In this document: positions 9,321 to 33,361 of the stretch, piece after piece
Layout: each line of letters begins with the position of its first letter
Position numbering within the stretch: position 1 is the stretch's first letter
Notes under the pieces: model-generated
The model's database searches: none
Told to the model about the DNA's origin: nothing
Seen by the model: the letters and a program-made list of their open reading frames with translations, nothing else
Program-made: the position numbers and the translations under genes
DNA from: Myxococcales bacterium
Lineage (GTDB): Bacteria > Myxococcota_A > Polyangia > Nannocystales > Nannocystaceae
Reading direction: 5' to 3'
DNA length: 64,000 nt
Assembly (NCBI GenBank): GCA_020633335.1
Contig: JACKDU010000002.1
Coordinates: forward strand, 250,730 to 314,729

Positions 9321-9698
9321 TCAGCTCGGCAGGCGCTCGCCCTGAGCTTGGCCGAAGATCCGATCGATCGCGAACTGCACCTCCTCGGTGAGGTGGTTGG
9401 GCTCGCCGAGGGCCGCGAGGTAGAAGGGCCGACCGCGGACCTCGACCCGCCAGATCTGGACGACCTCGCCGCGGGTGATCGCGTCCAGGAGCTCCTGGTT
9501 GAGGTTGGCCGGCTCCTCGGCGACGATCGGCGCGACCGCGGCGAGCTTCTCCGAGCGGTCGCCGACCCCGGTCACGCAGAGCCCCTTGGTCGAGGCCAGG
9601 GCCACGGTGTGGAGGCCCGTCCGCTCGGAGATGGACTTGAGGTAGTAACCCGCGGCTTCCCACGGGACAGTGCTGCGCTCGTTGCGACGATCAATCAT
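9321..9698 (-). CDS. hypothetical protein, possible roadblock/LC7-fold protein
   Basis: Start taken at MIDRRNE. The central segment HTVALASTKGLCVTGVGD…RVEVRGRPFYLAALGEPNHL has the alternating pattern of roadblock/LC7 proteins. Weak. Confidence 0.4.
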   Translation of the reverse strand: MIDRRNERSTVPWEAAGYYLKSISERTGLHTVALASTKGLCVTGVGDRSEKLAAVAPIVAEEPANLNQELLDAITRGEVVQIWRVEVRGRPFYLAALGEPNHLTEEVQFAIDRIFGQAQGERLPS

Positions 9699-20519: not shown

Positions 20520-21368
20520 TCAGGCGGCCGTGTCGTCGCCGAGGAGCACGGTTCCGTGGCTCCCGGGCGCCTCGGCCTCGCCCGCGAGCGCGCCGGCGCC
20601 GACGCCGAGGATATGGACCGCGCCGATCCCAGCCTCGAGGTTGCGGAGCGCCTCCTCGACCTTCGGGATCATCCCGCCGACGATCACCCCCTCGGCGATC
20701 GCCTGGCGGACCTCGGCCGCCCGCATCCTCGGGATCCGCGAGCTCGGATCGTCGCGGTCGCGGAGCACCCCGGGGACGTTGGTCAGGGCGAAGAGGTGAT
20801 CGGCGCGGAGGGCCGCGGCGATCGCCGCCGACACGGTGTCGGCGTTGATGTTGAACACCGGCGCCCGCACGGGATCGCCCTCTGGATCGACGCCGAGGGT
20901 GCTGATCACAGGCGTCAGACCGGCGGCCCAGAGGTGCTCGATGAGACCCGTGCGGATCCCCACGACATCGCCGACATGCCCAAAATCCACCGGCTCCGGG
21001 CCGCCGCCCGAGACCACCACCGGCGGCCGCTTGCGGGCCCGCACGAGGCCGCCGCTGACCCCACAGACGCCGATCGCGTCGACGCCGGCGGCCAGCGCCG
21101 AGGCGACGAGATCGACGCTGACCTCGCCCGCGAGCACCTGCTTCATCACCTGAAGTGTCGGCGCGTCGGTGATCCGACGGCCGCCGACCTTGTGCGCCTT
21201 GAGACCGAGGCGCCCCTGGAGATCGCTCGCCTGCGGCCCGCCGCCGTGGCAGATCGCGATCCGCCAGCCCTTGCCGACCAGGGCCGCGACGTCGCGCAGC
21301 ACCTCGGCGAGCGGCCCCGGCTGGGCGACCACGTCGCCGCCGATCTTGAGGACGGCGATCGGGCTCAT
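20520..21368 (-). CDS. argB: acetylglutamate kinase
   Basis: AAK family: VLKIGG, ICHGGGPQ, NINADT. Start at MSPIAVLKIGG. The ATG overlaps the argC stop as ATGA. Confidence 0.85.
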   Translation of the reverse strand: MSPIAVLKIGGDVVAQPGPLAEVLRDVAALVGKGWRIAICHGGGPQASDLQGRLGLKAHKVGGRRITDAPTLQVMKQVLAGEVSVDLVASALAAGVDAIGVCGVSGGLVRARKRPPVVVSGGGPEPVDFGHVGDVVGIRTGLIEHLWAAGLTPVISTLGVDPEGDPVRAPVFNINADTVSAAIAAALRADHLFALTNVPGVLRDRDDPSSRIPRMRAAEVRQAIAEGVIVGGMIPKVEEALRNLEAGIGAVHILGVGAGALAGEAEAPGSHGTVLLGDDTAA

Positions 21369-22468
21369 GGCCACATCCCGGGGAGATCGACGCCCATCGC
21401 CTCGGGGAGCCCGAGCATCAGGTTCATCGACTGCACGGCCTGACCTGCGCCGCCCTTCACCAGGTTGTCGAGGGCGCTGGTGATCACGAGCTGGCGCTTG
21501 CCGCTGGTCGGATCGACGACGCCGAGGGTCCACGAGACGTCGGCCCAGATCGTCCCCTTGACCGCGACGACCTCGGCCTGGTCGCGGGAGCCCCGGACCC
21601 GGACGACCGGCGAGTCCGCGTAGAACTCGCCGAAGAGGCGCTCGATCGTCGCCTGGTCGGTCTCCGCCGGGACCTCGATGAAGGAGTTGACGAGGATCCC
21701 CCGGACCAGCGGCGCCGAGACCGGGACGAAGGCCAGCGAGAAGCTCGCCGGGTGGCCGCCGAGGGCGCAGGCGTCACCGAGGGTCTGCTCGATCTCCGGC
21801 GTGTGCTGGTGGGCGAGCGGCTTGTAGATCTTGAGGTTGGCGGCGCGGATCGGGTGGTGGGTGCCGGACGAGGCGTAGGCGCCGGAGCCCGACGAGCCGG
21901 TCGCGGCGACCGTGTGGATCGGCCCGCGGAGGAGCCCGGCGCGGGCCAGCGGCAGGAGGCCGAGGGCGATCGTGGTCGCAAAGCAGCCCGGCGAGGCGAC
22001 CCGACGGGCGCCGCGGATCGCCGCGCGGTTGAGCTCCGGGAGGCCGTAGATGAAGGTCCCGAGGTACTCCGGGTGGGGGTGCTCGCCGCCGTAGAAGCGG
22101 GCGTAGAGCTCCTTGTCGCGGAGGCGGTAGTCGCCGGAGAGATCGATGATCCGGGCGTCGACGCCGGCGAGCTCGGCGGCCATGGTCGCGCTGACCTTGT
22201 GCGGGAGGGCGAGGAAGACGACGTCGACCCCCTGGGCGGCCTCGGTCGCCGACATCTTCTCGAAGGTCAGGCCGGTCGGGCCGAGGGTGCGGTGGACCGC
22301 CTCGAGGGGCTCGTCGACGTGATCGATGCTGGTCACGCGGGCGAGCTCGACCGCCGGGTGGGTGACAAGAAGTCGGATCAGCTCGGCCCCGCCGTAGCCG
22401 GTGCCGCCGATGACAGCCGCGCGGAAACGCGCAGGGTTTTCGGAGTCTCTGGAGCGCGCAAGGGTCAT
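21365..22468 (-). CDS. argC: N-acetyl-gamma-glutamyl-phosphate reductase
   Basis: NAD-binding AVIGGTGYGG. Active-site region SPGCFATT (catalytic Cys). Start at MTLARSRD. Confidence 0.85.
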   Translation of the reverse strand: MTLARSRDSENPARFRAAVIGGTGYGGAELIRLLVTHPAVELARVTSIDHVDEPLEAVHRTLGPTGLTFEKMSATEAAQGVDVVFLALPHKVSATMAAELAGVDARIIDLSGDYRLRDKELYARFYGGEHPHPEYLGTFIYGLPELNRAAIRGARRVASPGCFATTIALGLLPLARAGLLRGPIHTVAATGSSGSGAYASSGTHHPIRAANLKIYKPLAHQHTPEIEQTLGDACALGGHPASFSLAFVPVSAPLVRGILVNSFIEVPAETDQATIERLFGEFYADSPVVRVRGSRDQAEVVAVKGTIWADVSWTLGVVDPTSGKRQLVITSALDNLVKGGAGQAVQSMNLMLGLPEAMGVDLPGMWP

Positions 22469-22674
22469 GGGTCGCCTCGAGGCCGGCTTGTACCACCTGC
22501 CGACGCGGGCAGCGACCAGGTATGACATCGAGGGTCAGGCATGACAGAGATGTCAGGGTGCCTGCGCAAGCGGGCGGCGCGCCCCTGACATCTGCGTCAT
22601 ACCTAGGTCAGAAATTCGTGCGCGCACGGCCGCCCCGACAAGGTGGCATCAACAATTTCAACGACTTGCCAAAG

Positions 22675-22690
22675 TGGCACCCGACCTGCA
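22675..22690 (+). promoter_or_regulatory. putative sigma54 (-24/-12) promoter firing rightward into the CT-rich block
   Basis: TGGCAC-ccgac-CTGCA: perfect -24 element, GC at -12, correct GG-to-GC spacing of 12 nt. Predicted TSS ~22702. Confidence 0.4.
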
Positions 22691-22739
22691 GACAAGGCGG
22701 GCGTCTGCCCAACAAGCAGACCCTTCTAGCCTAGCTCTT

Positions 22740-23040
22740 CGACTCGCTTGCCTGACTTCGACTGACTGACTTGGCCTGACTTCGCCTCTTCTTTTGCCGC
22801 TTGGTCTCGCTTCGCCTGGTCTCACCTGCCGCTCGCTCCTTGCCCTCTACGCACGCGCTCGCCCTACCGCTTGAGCGCGCCCGCTCCTCTGTTCGGTTCT
22901 CCTTCGCTTGATGGCTTCTCAGATCCTCCTGCGCTTGGCTTGAATCCTCTCTTGTTGGCTTATTTGGCCTTCTCTGGACTGAAATAGACGAATTGACGCG
23001 CTCCGGCGCGTTCGCATGGTCGGTGCTGAAACTTAGAACT
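22740..23040 (+). ncRNA. pyrimidine-rich (C+T ~80% on + strand), lower-GC non-coding block. Candidate sigma54-driven ncRNA or long leader.
   Basis: No ORF in any frame. Short degenerate repeats (gacttcg, cttgg, ctcgcttcgcc). Sits between the sigma54 promoter and an intrinsic terminator on the same strand. The reverse strand is the argC upstream region. Confidence 0.4.
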
Positions 23041-23048
23041 GGGGGGGG

Positions 23049-23092
23049 ACCCAGGACGGCTTGGTCAGCTGTCCTGGGTTCTCGTTTTTAAG
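23049..23092 (+). terminator. intrinsic terminator (+ strand)
   Basis: 11-bp stem cccaggacggc/gctgtcctggg (one G-U), 7-nt loop ttggtca, followed by ttctcgttttta. Confidence 0.55.
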
Positions 23093-23202
23093 GCGCGCCG
23101 GCCCGGCTCGCCGATGGCGCTCCACGGGTGGACGCGGCGCAGCGCGGCCGGCCCGGCGCGACGCCAGCTCACGAGCCTCCGCCAGCTCGCCAGAGCGCGC
23201 CG

Positions 23203-24129
23203 CTAGTGGAGATGATCCTCGGGCTCGGCCACCCGGTCGGCGAGGCGCCAGACCTGCTCGCTGGCGACCCGCCCCTCGAGCGCAGCCTCGAGCTCGCGCC
23301 GCTCGGGGTGACCCGGGCCGATCGGCAAGCGACCGGCGTCGATGACATAGTGGGCCCGAAGCGCGCACTCGGCCCCGCCCGGGAGGGCGTGGACCGCCGG
23401 CGCCCCGCCCTCCTCGCGGACCACGTCGAGCCGCGCCTGCACGCGCCCGCCGCAGCGCGGACAGGGGACGGAGCTCCCCGCCTCCCCGCGCCAGAGGGTC
23501 AGGAAGGGCTCCGCCCGGCGGTGGCTCGCCCGGGCCTCCCGCCACCACGCGGCGTCATAGGTGAAGACCCCTGGCAGCTCACGCGGGAGGATCCCCGCCT
23601 CCCGCAGCCAGCTCGCCGAGACGTAGTAGGCCGGCGCCTGGCGCTCGTCCTGCTCGCGGGCCTCGACGAAGAGGTGGGGCCGATCGAAGTGCGGGTCGAG
23701 GCGCCACGACGCCTCGAGGGCCTCCCGCGCCGGCCCGGCCAGCCGCCAGAAGCGGTGGCCGACGACCACCCGCGTCAGGCGGTCGACGAAGACGAAGAGG
23801 ACGTTGCTCAGCTTGTGCCAGGGATCGAGCGCGAGGTCGCAGACCTTGAGCTTGTCGGCGACGATCGCCCCGCCCCGCCGCCAGACGCTGACGACCTTGA
23901 GCTCGATCCGATCCTCCCAGTCGAGGCGCGGGAGGCCGTCGTGGGGATCGAGCCCGAAATGCCACTGGAGCGCGTTGCCAAAGCGCCCGCGCGAGCGGCG
24001 GGCCGTGAAGAGGCCGGCCGCCGGCGCGAGCGCGAGGCCGAGGGAGGCGTCGGCGAGGGCCTCCAGGTGAGCGCACCGAGCGAGCGGCGCGTCACGCCCG
24101 GGCGGCGGATGACGCAGCGGGAGGCGCAC
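23203..24129 (-). CDS. MutH/Sau3AI-family PD-(D/E)xK endonuclease-like protein with C-terminal Cys cluster
   Basis: RFGNALQWHFGL…LDWEDRIELKVVSV…KLSNVLFVFV parallels MutH KGWIGVLLEIWLG…DFAALGVELKTIPV…KLKRVLWIPV (D-x5/6-E-L-K catalytic triad). C-terminal region contains CPRCGG. Confidence 0.5.
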   Translation of the reverse strand: MRLPLRHPPPGRDAPLARCAHLEALADASLGLALAPAAGLFTARRSRGRFGNALQWHFGLDPHDGLPRLDWEDRIELKVVSVWRRGGAIVADKLKVCDLALDPWHKLSNVLFVFVDRLTRVVVGHRFWRLAGPAREALEASWRLDPHFDRPHLFVEAREQDERQAPAYYVSASWLREAGILPRELPGVFTYDAAWWREARASHRRAEPFLTLWRGEAGSSVPCPRCGGRVQARLDVVREEGGAPAVHALPGGAECALRAHYVIDAGRLPIGPGHPERRELEAALEGRVASEQVWRLADRVAEPEDHLH

Positions 24130-24171
24130 AGGGGCTCCGATCCGTGGAGGCGATCCGCCGACGCCGGCGGG

Positions 24172-24354
24172 CTACTCCGGCTTCTTCTCTTCGGGCTTGG
24201 CCTCGGCCTTCTCGTCGGCCTTCTTGTCGTCGGCCTTGTCCGCGTCGTCCGTCTTCTCGGCCTTCTCTTCCTTCTTCTTGCCCGGCTGCTCCGCGCAGGC
24301 GGCGAGGCCGATCAGGGAAAAGCCGAGGATGAACACTCCAAAGATCCGCATCAT
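24172..24354 (-). CDS. small lipoprotein with Lys/Glu/Asp-rich tail
   Basis: MMRIFGVFILGFSLIGLAAC lipobox then KKKEEKAEKTDDADKADDKKADEKAEAKPEEKKPE. The encoding DNA is a simple repeat. Confidence 0.4.
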   Translation of the reverse strand: MMRIFGVFILGFSLIGLAACAEQPGKKKEEKAEKTDDADKADDKKADEKAEAKPEEKKPE

Positions 24355-24417
24355 TGGTCTCCTTGTCTCCACCCGAGGTGGGCCGTCGCCTACGCTACGG
24401 CCGAGGCCCGCGGAGCG

Positions 24418-24792
24418 TCAAGGCGCCGCCGCGGGCGCCAGCGCGGCCGGCCGCCCCCCGTCGTCGATCTGGACGTAGACCAGCTCGGCGGTGGTGACCA
24501 CGACCGAGCGCCGGTGCTGCGGATCCTGGGCGACCACCCGGACCACCACGGTGATCGAGGTGCGGCCGCGGGCGGTGACGTCGCCGTAGCAGGAGACGAT
24601 GTCGCCGACCCGCACGGGGTGACGAAAGATCACCTCGCGGATCGCCACCGTCACCACCTTCCCGACCCCGGCGGACTGGGCGACGATCGCCCCCGCCTGG
24701 TCGATGATGCTGAGGATCACCCCGCCAAAGATCGTGCCGTGCGCGTTGGTGTCGCGCGGCATCATCATCACCCGGATCGCCGGCTCGTCCAT
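24418..24792 (-). CDS. acyl-CoA thioesterase (hotdog fold, YciA-like)
   Basis: MPRDTNAHGTIFGGVILSIIDQAGAIVA…VTVAIREVIFRHPVRVGDIV matches the YciA/4HBT family. Start at MDEPAIR. Confidence 0.7.
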   Translation of the reverse strand: MDEPAIRVMMMPRDTNAHGTIFGGVILSIIDQAGAIVAQSAGVGKVVTVAIREVIFRHPVRVGDIVSCYGDVTARGRTSITVVVRVVAQDPQHRRSVVVTTAELVYVQIDDGGRPAALAPAAAP

Positions 24793-28310: not shown

Positions 28311-30005
28311 CTAGTCCCCCTGCTTCCGCTTGAGCTTGCGGAGCTTGATCCCGAGCTGGTTCATCCGCAGCTGGATCTTCCGCCCGGTGTCGGCGCTGCC
28401 GAGGAGCCAGAGCCCCATCTGCCCGAGATCGCCGCCTGCCTGGCTGTAGAGGGCCTCGAGGTACTGGCGCTCGACCGCGCAGGAGACCGCGTTGAGCGAC
28501 TCCTCGGCGCCCAGGCGGATCGTCACCTTGCGCCCCGGGAGGTCGTCGCTCGCGCTCGCCACCTCGCCGCGCTGCGCCCTCGCCATCGGCCGCAGGAGGT
28601 CGCTGACGGTCTTCGGCGGGATCGGCACGACGTCGGGGCGGCTCGCCTTCCCCGGATCCTCGGGCTCGATCTGCGAGGCCCGCTCGACCAGCTCGACCAG
28701 CGTGAAGGTGACGAGGTTCGAGAGGGTCATCTCGAACTGCCGGAAGTTGCCCGGCCACTCGAAGGCGCGGAGGAGCTTGAGCGAGCTCGGGTGGAAGAGG
28801 AAGTGGATCCGCCCCGGCTCGCTCCGGCTCGGCACCGACGAGCCGACGCTCACCGGCAGGAGGCCGCCGCCGCTCGGCAGCCGGAGCCCGCGCTGCTCGG
28901 CGTACTGGAGGACGAGGTCGCGGTTGTAGGCCTCGGAGGCGACCCGCCGGATGAAGAAGGTCAGGAGCTCGGCGAAGTCGTCGGAGCGCTCGGCGAGGCC
29001 CGGCAGGGTGACCGCCGTCGCCGGGTTGAGGCGCATGTAGAGATCCTCGCGGAAGCGGCCGCCGCGGACCAACGACGCCAGATCCTCGTTGGTAGCGACC
29101 ACCAGCTTGATGTCGACGCTCCGCTCCTTGACCGAGCCGACCGGCCGAAAGCTCCCCTCCTGGAGGACCAGGAGGAGCGACTTTTGGAGCTCGAGCGAGA
29201 GGTTGCCGATCTCGTCGAGGAAGAGGGTGCCGCCGTCGGCCCGCGCGAGCACGCCCTCGCGGGTCGCGGTCGCCCCGGTGTAGGCGCCCTTGATCACGCC
29301 GAAGAGGTGGGCGGCCATCAGATCGCTCGGGATCGTCGAGAGGTCGACGGCGACGAAGGGCCCCGAGCGCCCGGAGTGCGGGTGGATGTACTCGCGGACG
29401 ACCAGGCTCTTGCCGGTGCCGGTCGCCCCCTGGATGATGATCGGCAGGCGACCGCGGGCGAGGATCCCGAGGCGGCGCCGGAGGCTGAGCATCGCCGGCG
29501 TCGCCCCCCAGAAGAAGGGCTCCGCCTCGGCCGGCGCGCTCTCCTGCCGGCGGGCGAGGATCCCCTCGATCTGCAGCTTGAGGGAGCGCGCGTCGAGATA
29601 CTCGTCGGCGAGGAGGTAGGTGTAGTCCTCGGCGTGGAGGCGCTCGGCGTCGACCTCGAGGGGGAGGTCGTCGCGCGAGGTCATGACGATGAGCGGCAGG
29701 TCCGGGTAGTCCTGCCGGAGGCGATCGAGGATCTGCAGCCCCTGGGTCCGCCGCAGCCGCTCGATCACCCGCCGGCGATCGCCGCGGGCGAAGAGCGCCT
29801 CCTTGTCGTAGGGGAGGAGCTCGTCCTCGGCGATGTTGAAGTGGACGTCGAGGAGGACGAGGTCGATCGCCGCGCGCTGCTGCCGGAGCGCCGCCGCGGC
29901 CTCGCGGTAGTTGCGGGCAGGCGGCAAGAACTCGTGCTCCGGCATGAAGCGGCGGCAGAGCTCGAGGTAGTTGTCCTCGTCATCGATGATGAGGATCGAC
30001 GACAT
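28311..30005 (-). CDS. sigma54-dependent response regulator (REC-AAA+ sigma54 activator-HTH, NtrC family)
   Basis: REC (ILIIDDE…LLDVHF). Walker A GATGTGKS. GAYTGA variant of the GAFTGA loop. Walker B GTLFLDEIG. R-finger region. C-terminal Fis-type HTH. Confidence 0.85.
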   Translation of the reverse strand: MSSILIIDDEDNYLELCRRFMPEHEFLPPARNYREAAAALRQQRAAIDLVLLDVHFNIAEDELLPYDKEALFARGDRRRVIERLRRTQGLQILDRLRQDYPDLPLIVMTSRDDLPLEVDAERLHAEDYTYLLADEYLDARSLKLQIEGILARRQESAPAEAEPFFWGATPAMLSLRRRLGILARGRLPIIIQGATGTGKSLVVREYIHPHSGRSGPFVAVDLSTIPSDLMAAHLFGVIKGAYTGATATREGVLARADGGTLFLDEIGNLSLELQKSLLLVLQEGSFRPVGSVKERSVDIKLVVATNEDLASLVRGGRFREDLYMRLNPATAVTLPGLAERSDDFAELLTFFIRRVASEAYNRDLVLQYAEQRGLRLPSGGGLLPVSVGSSVPSRSEPGRIHFLFHPSSLKLLRAFEWPGNFRQFEMTLSNLVTFTLVELVERASQIEPEDPGKASRPDVVPIPPKTVSDLLRPMARAQRGEVASASDDLPGRKVTIRLGAEESLNAVSCAVERQYLEALYSQAGGDLGQMGLWLLGSADTGRKIQLRMNQLGIKLRKLKRKQGD

Positions 30006-32017: not shown

Positions 32018-33361
32018 ATGGCTGAGGCTGAGGCTGACCTCGTCGCCCGCGACCGCGACATCATCTGGCACCCGGCGACCCACTTCGACGATCTCGGGCG
32101 CCTGCCGCCGATCGCGATCGCCCGGGCCGCCGGCTGCTGGCTCCACGACGTCGAGGGGCGGCCGATCCTCGACGCGATCGCCTCCTGGTGGACGTCGATC
32201 CACGGCCACTGCTTCCCGCCGATCGTCGAGGCGATCACCGAGGCCGCCGCCCGCCTCGATCACGTGATGTTCGCCGGCTTCACCCACGCGGCCGCGGTCG
32301 AGCTCGCCGAGGCGCTCGTCGCCAGCGCGCCGCCGGGCTACGGCCGGGTCTTCTACGCCGACTGCGGCTCCGCGGCCGTCGAGATCGCGCTGAAGATCAG
32401 CTTCCAGTCGCGCCTCCTCGCCGGCGAGGGCGAGCGTCGGCGCTTCGCCACCCTCGCCAACAGCTACCACGGCGAGACCCTCGGGGCCCTCGCGCTCTGC
32501 GGCAGCGACACCTACCGCGAGACCTTCAGCCCGCTCCTGATGCCGGCGCTCCGCCTGCCGGCGCCCGACCTCGCCAACCACGGCCTCGCCGACGCCGGCC
32601 CTGACGCGGGCGCCGATCACCCCGAGACCGACCGGGCGATCGCCCTCCTCGAGGCCCACGCGGCCGAGCTCTCGGCGCTCGTCGTCGAGCCGATGGTCCA
32701 GTGCGCGGGCAAGATGCGGATGACCGGCGGCGGCTTCTACCGCCGGATCTGCGAGGCCGCGCAGGCCCTCGGGATCCACGTGATCGCCGACGAGATCGCC
32801 GTCGGCTTCGGCCGCACCGGGCGGCTCTTCGCCAGCGCGTGGGCTGGCGTCCGCCCCGACTTCCTCTGCCTGAGCAAGGGGCTCTCGGGCGGGGTCCTGC
32901 CGCTCGCCGCCGTCCTGATCCGCGAGGGCCTCGACGCGCTCTTCCGCGGGGGCCCCGAGCGCTCCTTCGCCCACAGCCACACCTTCACTGGCAACCCGAT
33001 CGCCTGCGCGGCCGGCCTCGCCAGCCTCCGGGCGCTGACCGAGGGCGGCCTCCTGGCGCGCCTCCCGGGGCGCGCGGAGGCGCTCGCGGAGGCGGCGGCG
33101 CGGGTGCGCGGCGCCTGCCCGGCGATCGCCCGCCACCGCCAGATCGGGATGATCGTCGCCTTCGACGTCGACGCCCCCGCGGGGCACCCCGCCCTCCCCC
33201 GCCTCGGCCTCGAGCTCCGACGCGCCGCCCTCACCCACGGGGTGCTGCTGCGGCCGCTCCATGACACCATCTACTGGATGCCGCCGCTCTCGATCGCCGA
33301 CGACGAGCTCGACGCGCTCGCCACCCGGACGATCGCCAGCGTCCAGGAGGTGCTCGGGTGA
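32018..33361 (+). CDS. bioA: adenosylmethionine-8-amino-7-oxononanoate aminotransferase (class III PLP aminotransferase)
   Basis: DAIASWWTSIHGH, class III aminotransferase fold, DEIAVGFGRTG and LCLSKGLSGG (PLP-Lys region). Confidence 0.75.
   Translation: MAEAEADLVARDRDIIWHPATHFDDLGRLPPIAIARAAGCWLHDVEGRPILDAIASWWTSIHGHCFPPIVEAITEAAARLDHVMFAGFTHAAAVELAEALVASAPPGYGRVFYADCGSAAVEIALKISFQSRLLAGEGERRRFATLANSYHGETLGALALCGSDTYRETFSPLLMPALRLPAPDLANHGLADAGPDAGADHPETDRAIALLEAHAAELSALVVEPMVQCAGKMRMTGGGFYRRICEAAQALGIHVIADEIAVGFGRTGRLFASAWAGVRPDFLCLSKGLSGGVLPLAAVLIREGLDALFRGGPERSFAHSHTFTGNPIACAAGLASLRALTEGGLLARLPGRAEALAEAAARVRGACPAIARHRQIGMIVAFDVDAPAGHPALPRLGLELRRAALTHGVLLRPLHDTIYWMPPLSIADDELDALATRTIASVQEVLG

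Follow-up and report, generated by a model that had tools for sequence, protein, structure and literature searches.

A predicted sigma-54-dependent non-coding RNA gene with a CYU-N-R-CYU repeat array beside argC in the Nannocystineae

The 64,000-nucleotide (nt) stretch of DNA analyzed here (hereafter the window; contig JACKDU010000002.1 of a Myxococcales bacterium) carries argC, argB and a gene for an M20 peptidase next to each other on the minus strand. Upstream of argC, on the plus strand, lies what we regard with high confidence as a genuine and previously undescribed non-coding RNA gene, whose predicted transcript spans positions 22700–23089 (about 390 nt; 389 nt in the window copy). Its start lies some 230 nt upstream of the conserved ATG at 22468 with which argC begins (the mechanical list of open reading frames, ORFs, has 21365–22528 on the minus strand), and it runs away from argC. 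The next gene downstream, 308 codons long (23206–24129, minus strand), converges on its terminator. We consider the locus an RNA gene because promoter, body and terminator are conserved in a consistent orientation, because the terminator covaries, because a short motif is kept while sequence and copy number around it change, and because no ORF is conserved. A sequence-only reading of the window had proposed a non-coding, sigma-54-dependent unit of about 390 nt at this place; the conservation of the whole unit, the invariant −24/−12 element, the helically phased palindromes and the covarying terminator support that proposal. It had also rightly named the arg genes, the M20 gene and a sigma-54 activator gene at 28311–30005 as neighbors.

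The ArgC protein of the window is most similar (81% identity) to that of a Nannocystaceae metagenome-assembled genome (MAG) and shares 71% identity with that of Nannocystis pusilla, and on the grounds of these matches we place the window in the Nannocystineae. Non-conservation or absence of the block in close relatives had been named as an outcome that would speak against an RNA gene. Instead, 25 other distinct sequences from Nannocystineae genomes, MAGs and metagenome contigs keep the whole unit at the equivalent locus and with a single orientation: ten genome loci, 11 distinct metagenome contigs (13 in total) and four loci of cultured strains that were reached via a neighboring protein; the detailed comparison of features covers 22 sequences. 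Layout and orientation upstream of argC are alike in all ten relatives with an ArgC identity of at least 65% and sufficient flanking sequence, and in an eleventh (locus L001) the contig ends just past the promoter. No comparable unit was found upstream of argC in 14 more distant Myxococcota (L012–L025). A DNA pattern for the 3′ domain that made no use of genomic context picked out 35 stretches in a metagenome collection, of which 22 were chance matches and 13 (11 distinct) true copies; all 13 of the latter lie in one and the same synteny, with argB-argC, the diverging RNA gene and the converging 308-codon gene.

Each Nannocystineae locus holds exactly one match to a covariance model built on the 3′ domain; the scores are 40–85 bits for 25 loci and 28–31 bits for Enhygromyxa and Pseudenhygromyxa, at a noise level of at most 21 bits. 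Among the cultured strains, Paraliomyxa miuraensis scores 79 bits, Nannocystis sp. ILAH1 65, Enhygromyxa salina 31 and Pseudenhygromyxa sp. WMMC2535 28. The same model matches nothing in the 14 other Myxococcota loci, and neither the window nor any other locus examined contains a second copy. As far as sampled, the RNA gene thus appears confined to the Nannocystineae. In E. salina and Pseudenhygromyxa sp. WMMC2535, argC is missing at the locus and the unit, together with both of its upstream palindromes, has argB on one side and the 308-codon gene on the other; the M20 gene seems to have been lost there as well (L118, 3930–4746; L120, 3930–4796). In locus L006 it is the 308-codon gene that is displaced and inverted, and the unit still adjoins argC. 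Because the unit is retained when argC is lost or when the 308-codon gene is displaced, we regard it as an entity of its own and not as an appendage of either neighbor. The suggestion of the sequence-only reading that it might act as an antisense RNA or leader of argC is therefore disfavored, since the unit runs away from argC and is kept where argC is lost.

The control region has the layout expected of an activator-dependent sigma-54 promoter. As a yardstick we used a TGGCAC-N5-TTGCW element preceded at about 80–150 base pairs (bp) by activator sites, as a rule two palindromes that face the same side of the helix. The −24/−12 element of the window, TGGCAC-N5-CTGCA (TGGCACCCGACCTGCA; 22675–22690, plus strand; GG at 22676–22677, GC at 22688–22689), was correctly recognized from the sequence as pointing into the block. 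It is the single match to TGGCAC-N5-YTGCW on both strands of the 64 kb, where chance predicts 0.04 matches and at least one is present in 4 of 100 shuffles. Its GG and TGC are invariant columns in an alignment of 11 sequences. In the search zone 50–170 nt past the second palindrome, each of the 22 sequences has a single GG-N10-GC candidate, with the GG/GC spacing of exactly 10 nt and the orientation towards the transcribed region. No sigma-70-type promoter was found in a scan of 21500–24500.

Upstream of this element lie two palindromes that are candidate binding sites for a sigma-54 activator. Palindrome 1 (TGACAGAGATGTCA; 22542–22555; family consensus GACA-N4-TGTC) is present in all 22 sequences, and its GAC and TGTC columns are invariant in the 11-sequence alignment; in palindrome 2 (TGACATCTGCGTCATA; 22586–22601; consensus GGACAT-N4-GTCATA) this holds for the GACA and GTCAT columns. 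Across the 22 sequences the two are spaced by 42–45 bp, or about four helical turns. The distance from palindrome 2 to the C of the −12 element is 91–92 bp in five sequences and 101–105 bp in the other 17, two classes that are one helical turn apart. The palindromes are thus paired and helically phased relative to the promoter, as sites that an activator would presumably bind. Between them and the −24 element lies a conserved A+T-rich block (CATCAACAATTTCAAC; 22647–22662), part of which forms invariant columns in the 11 sequences and whose ATTTCA core is kept in the alignment. It is possibly a site for a DNA-bending protein similar to integration host factor (IHF); our own comparison shows only a partial agreement with the IHF consensus WATCAANNNNTTR. 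Activator-dependent sigma-54 promoters of NtrC-family systems are classically built from paired upstream sites in helical phase, DNA that can bend, and a GG-N10-GC element. The same combination is seen here, with an invariant GG-N10-GC, and we consider it likely that transcription of the RNA gene depends on sigma-54.

Other features of the control region are recorded here as observations. An inverted repeat, GCCAA-N-TTGGC (window copy GCCAAAGTGGC, 22667–22678), overlaps the −24 element in many homologs, e.g., in L003, L099, L101 and L114; TTGGC is also the core of the motif of the array described below, and the repeat may serve as a repressor site or be a relic of the array's origin. A third and weaker site resembling TGAC-N7-GTCA is seen in the window copy at 22523–22537, between palindrome 1 and argC.

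At the other end of the unit, an intrinsic terminator (23045–23089, plus strand) consists of a G+C-rich stem of 17 pairs (23045–23083), a loop containing UUGGUC, and GUUUUU directly after the hairpin. The plus-strand terminator had been anticipated with an 11-bp stem; the terminator scan confirms it with the longer stem, followed by GTTTTT in the DNA. On the opposite strand the hairpin is followed by a C-run, and the terminator should therefore serve the plus strand only. Over the 22 sequences, 91.6% of the cells in the helix pair and 9 of the 17 pairs are compensatory, compared with 38–58% pairing when the partner is slid by 1–3 columns; the mean folding z-score is −3.27. Covariation was counted on a trimmed alignment with an explicit structure, and RNAalifold applied to the raw MAFFT alignment of the 3′ region did not recover the terminator owing to misalignment. 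The 3′ domain as a whole, with a G+C hairpin, the box GGUCGGUGC, a linker, usually a G-run, and the terminator with its UUGGUC loop, is the best conserved part of the RNA, and related UUGGUC/GGUCGG elements recur in the domain and in the terminator loop. The covariance-model match in the window (23018–23085, 82.3 bits) begins at GGUCGGUGC, a single-stranded box (23018–23026) whose columns are (nearly) invariant in the 22-sequence alignment. The run of eight G (23041–23048), of which the last four form the basal pairs of the terminator stem together with UCUC, has counterparts of 6–8 G in 20 of the 22 aligned sequences; it is missing in L010, L011, Enhygromyxa and Pseudenhygromyxa and is thus not universal.

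Two further hairpins are predicted on the transcript. P2, a G+C-rich hairpin ACGCGC-UCCG-GCGCGU (22996–23011), is weakly to moderately indicated: a hairpin of differing sequence is predicted at its position in most of the 22 homologs, with a mean z-score of −0.84. The 5′-proximal stem-loop P1, GUCUGC-CCAACAA-GCAGAC (22703–22721), is predicted in nearly all homologs. In a hand-picked subgroup of nine sequences, 87% of its cells pair and three of seven pairs are compensatory, compared with 24–40% pairing with a slid partner, and these figures are no more than suggestive of a real stem-loop.

Between these ends, the body of the RNA stands out in the window by its composition. The 300 nt with the lowest G+C content of the window are 22704–23003 (0.577, compared with 0.725 overall) and the most pyrimidine-rich 300 nt are 22721–23020 (0.677). 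The pyrimidine-rich, low-G+C block of the sequence-only reading is thereby recovered as the extreme of the window on both counts; its estimate of about 80% C+T was too high, the values being 65% for 22740–23040 and 71% for 22730–22980. Similarly, the statement that the block holds no ORF in any frame was slightly overstated: ORFs of 26–38 codons on the plus strand and 32–55 codons on the minus strand exist, all of them short and none conserved. The plus-strand ORFs might be taken to encode one or several small proteins. Yet the longest plus-strand ORF varies between 17 and 104 codons among the homologs, the codon periodicity of a conserved ORF is not seen, the repeat periods of the body (5, 9–10 and 13–14 nt) are no multiples of three, and the length of the array changes freely, so that we consider a coding function extremely improbable. 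The homologs measure 214–496 nt from predicted start to T-run, and their A content is 8–20% (22 RNAs). The whole RNA is no more stable than shuffled sequences (folding z-score −0.74). Rfam 15 gave no match in the whole window at gathering score; at E-values up to 10, region 22300–23300 gave three weak matches to microRNA and small nucleolar RNA families, which are far below the gathering scores and lie outside the predicted transcript.

The body is occupied by a weakly structured, pyrimidine-rich array of CYU-N-R-CYU units (22730–22985), for instance CCUGACUU, CUUGGCCU, CUUGGUCU and CUUGGCUU. An expectation-maximization motif search converged on two (R)CYU units 5 nt apart, and in the bodies of ten homologs CYT triplets spaced by exactly 5 nt occur 75 times, against 6.7 times in shuffles. 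The commonest 8-mers of the arrays are CUUGGCUU (32 occurrences), CCUGACUU (22), CUUCGCUU (20) and CCUGGCUU (17). In agreement with the short degenerate repeats noticed from the sequence, the window copy contains seven CYTNRCYT motifs, where dinucleotide shuffles have 1.2, and according to Tandem Repeats Finder the periods at 22737–22787 are 10 and 14 nt; within the window, the motif clusters at this locus only. The RNAs carry 4–12 motifs each, and 29 in L010, compared with about one in dinucleotide shuffles; at least four are present in 20 of the 22. Enrichment is 4- to 17-fold in most members, and most exceed the maximum of their own 200 shuffles. The array evolves fast and varies in length from 140 to 440 nt. 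Family-wide, nucleotides of the array have a mean unpaired probability of about 0.52, compared with 0.36 for those of the end domains. In L010 (about 9410–9610, minus strand), roughly 20 tandem 9-nt units CCTGAC(C/T)TA account for an array with 29 motif matches, a recent expansion that shows growth of the array by slippage.

Fast evolution and free variation in length, together with a whole-RNA stability no greater than that of shuffles, are what would be expected if the transcript had no motif-specific function and served as a Rho-loading (rut-like) region, as a spacer, or through transcription that insulates argC from the convergent gene. Rho prefers C-rich, G-poor unstructured RNA, which the array resembles. 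Nevertheless, the 8-nt motif and its 5-nt phasing are maintained across lineages whose ArgC proteins are 65–81% identical, GGUCGGUGC and the UUGGUC loop are nearly invariant, and all members have a dedicated, apparently activator-dependent promoter and a strong terminator. A role independent of the motif is therefore improbable in our view. It is also conceivable that the region acts as DNA, with an array of TTGGC-type half-sites or a polypyrimidine tract regulating argC or other neighbors and with incidental promoter- and terminator-like elements. TTGGC is shared by the −24 region and the array motif, a GCCAA/TTGGC pair overlaps the −24 element in many homologs, and the palindromes lie between the array and argC. 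We nonetheless judge this very improbable, given that all motifs point in the same direction and fall exactly between an oriented promoter and a covarying terminator, as expected under a constraint at the RNA level, that the unit persists where argC is absent, and that more than 230 bp, including the palindromes, separate the array from the argC start.

The main rival to a titrating function is that of a base-pairing regulatory RNA, whose CU-rich motifs would be seeds for purine-rich stretches in mRNAs or in another small RNA (sRNA), and which would alter translation or stability or act as a sponge. The evidence from promoter, terminator and conservation fits this equally well, pyrimidine-rich single-stranded seeds are common in bacterial sRNAs, and a purine-rich tail coding for Lys, Glu and Asp is present in a conserved small ORF nearby (24173–24353, minus strand). 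By contrast, the complement GAAGCCAAG of the motif is absent from the window, the best short complementary matches in the 64 kb are at chance level (E-values of 0.02–1 with blastn-short), and the duplex energy with the mRNA of the small ORF does not stand out from that of random windows, falling at their median (fraction 0.497); the search for targets covered this one 64-kb window, a small sample. Moreover, the motif's complement bears no resemblance to a Shine-Dalgarno sequence, and arrays of 10–29 near-identical seeds with rapidly changing copy number suit titration better. We thus consider base-pairing unlikely.

The nearest models are found among known sRNAs, with GlmY and NrsZ serving for the promoter design. 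CrcZ, of about 400 nt, is a decoy that titrates Hfq/Crc and whose transcription depends on sigma-54 and on CbrB, a response regulator of the NtrC family (PMC5113210, PMC4063720), and CrcZ and CrcY of Pseudomonas and Azotobacter combine several short single-stranded motifs with an intrinsic terminator and sequester protein (PMC5113210, PMC4063720, PMC6292655). The RNA described here resembles them in the design of its sigma-54 promoter, its length of about 400 nt and its intrinsic terminator, a resemblance of function and not of homology. It differs from them in that similarity in sequence or covariance model is lacking, in that it belongs to a different phylum and is not located directly downstream of the activator gene, and in that its motif is the pyrimidine-rich CYU-N-R-CYU, in higher and variable copy number, in place of the A-rich AANAANAA (CA) motif, which occurs in none of the 22 RNAs. 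With CsrB, CsrC and RsmX, RsmY and RsmZ it shares many short repeats, a fast-evolving copy number, structured ends and recurrence of the motif in the terminator loop. CsrB/RsmZ-type RNAs titrate CsrA and are rich in A(N)GGA motifs, most of which sit in hairpin loops; the 22 RNAs examined here contain only 2–7 GGA and 0–1 A-N-GGA each. They further differ from CsrB/RsmZ by their sigma-54 promoter, in contrast to the GacA/UvrY-dependent sigma-70 promoter of the latter, and by the lack of an Rfam match.

GlmY of Enterobacteriaceae, a decoy that titrates RapZ, has a sigma-54 promoter whose activation requires IHF and the NtrC-type activator GlrR, the latter acting on upstream palindromes of the TGTC/GACA type. 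Here, the palindromes have the form GACA-N4-TGTC and not TGTC-N10-GACA as for GlrR; GlmY has no repeat array, and again there is no Rfam match to GlmY or GlmZ. NrsZ is reportedly RpoN-dependent and said to consist of three stem-loop modules that are processed into short RNAs, whereas the repeats of the present RNA are single-stranded motifs of 8–13 nt and Rfam similarity to NrsZ is absent. NrsZ of Pseudomonas aeruginosa is described as a nitrogen-regulated small non-coding RNA induced by NtrB/C (PMC4253122). The fixed short spacing of triplets (here CYU every 5 nt) is reminiscent of the leaders recognized by TRAP and HutP. TRAP reads G/UAG triplets 2–3 nt apart, and TRAP/HutP leaders are cis-acting with 6–11 triplets in one register; by contrast, phasing here mostly spans two or three triplets per motif, and the RNA is free-standing. 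As a covariance-model match, an A(N)GGA array and AANAANAA are all lacking, the RNA belongs to none of the CrcZ, CsrB/RsmZ, GlmY and NrsZ families.

Taken together, we favor a sigma-54- and activator-dependent RNA that acts as a decoy in the manner of CrcZ or CsrB, and assign this overall reading a probability of about 0.5. Many copies of one short motif in accessible RNA are a general hallmark of decoy sRNAs, and we regard a trans-acting decoy as the most economical explanation, in which, by analogy with such sRNAs, the array would offer many equivalent single-stranded sites for titration of an RNA-binding factor. The protein-decoy mechanism as such is held tentatively, at somewhat less than even odds. 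It would begin with an NtrC-family activator binding to the two phased GACA-N4-TGTC-type palindromes about 100–150 bp upstream. The A+T-rich bendable segment would help the activator contact sigma-54 RNA polymerase at the −24/−12 element, upon which the promoter would open and transcription proceed to the strong intrinsic terminator. In the resulting RNA, structured ends (the 5′ stem-loop, the G+C hairpin and the terminator) would flank the weakly structured, fast-evolving CYU-N-R-CYU array. The array would titrate an RNA-binding protein, so that switching the gene on would draw this protein off its mRNA targets, and the length of the array would set the titration capacity. It is tempting to speculate further, on a model that we consider rather doubtful in its entirety, that the RNA is the titrating half of a new post-transcriptional switch in which a probably oligomeric protein reads CYU pairs phased by 5 nt, a sigma-54/NtrC signal sets the decoy level, and slippage expansion (from 4 to 29 sites) tunes capacity between species. 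Given the neighborhood of arg genes, the signal may possibly be nitrogen or arginine status.

Several observations weigh against the decoy reading. Being situated upstream of the divergent argC as well, the palindromes could form an operator of that gene rather than activator sites. Both ends of the transcript are sequence predictions, the start at about 22701 being placed 12 nt past the C of the −12 element (±3 nt) and the 3′ end in the T-run at 23085–23089. Folding of the 5′ 50 nt is not below that of shuffles (mean z-score −0.24), which counts against P1. The motif is degenerate, so that a strict pattern finds it just once in L098 and twice in L011, and its nucleotides are barely more accessible than the remaining array (0.54 vs 0.51). 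It matches neither the A(N)GGA of CsrA nor the AANAANAA of Hfq/Crc, and no candidate for a cognate RNA-binding protein was found; the product of the 308-codon gene has a MutH-like DNA nuclease fold and no sign of RNA binding. As for the regulator, the gene at 28311–30005 (minus strand) encodes an NtrC-type response regulator and sigma-54 activator with receiver and AAA+ domains, and Pfam detects no DNA-binding domain in its C-terminal tail of about 120 residues. This gene is absent within 10 kb in L003 and L006 and is syntenic in most loci, as is the whole neighborhood, so that the linkage of this candidate activator to the RNA gene goes no further than general synteny.

Additional features were noted in the surroundings. 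The argC ATG is about 75 bp from palindrome 1, and a conserved GTA(C/G)CAC-like block about 20–30 nt upstream of this ATG may be the promoter or leader of argC. A class-III aminotransferase gene (argD-like; 32018–33358, plus strand) is located nearby, and several arginine-pathway genes thus surround the RNA gene. The small ORF at 24173–24353, which appears unannotated, encodes a lipoprotein with a signal peptide, a lipobox (LAAC/AEQPGKKK) and a tail rich in Lys, Glu and Asp, and is kept upstream of the nuclease-like gene in most relatives. Its presence accounts for a second T-rich, A-poor plus-strand block at 24150–24300.

Our analysis delimits the RNA gene well in cultured strains (N. pusilla, Nannocystis sp. 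ILAH1, E. salina, P. miuraensis and Pseudenhygromyxa), where it is open to experiment, with a control region that is complete as predicted; its motif corresponds to that of no known bacterial RNA-binding protein. To our knowledge, regulatory RNAs described from myxobacteria are very few, with Pxr of Myxococcus as the main example, and in the literature we found no account of sRNAs in Nannocystis, Enhygromyxa or Plesiocystis within the Nannocystineae. These are large-genome, natural-product-rich and partly marine bacteria. The RNA is a clean candidate for a new Rfam family and breaks no known principles: the design of a sigma-54-driven, repeat-array and probably decoy RNA is known already, and the motif and the clade are new. 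If true, the decoy model would point to a hitherto undescribed global post-transcriptional regulator in a phylum to which the Hfq and CsrA paradigms may not apply, and the combination of a sigma-54 activator with a repeat-rich decoy RNA would reach beyond the Gammaproteobacteria.

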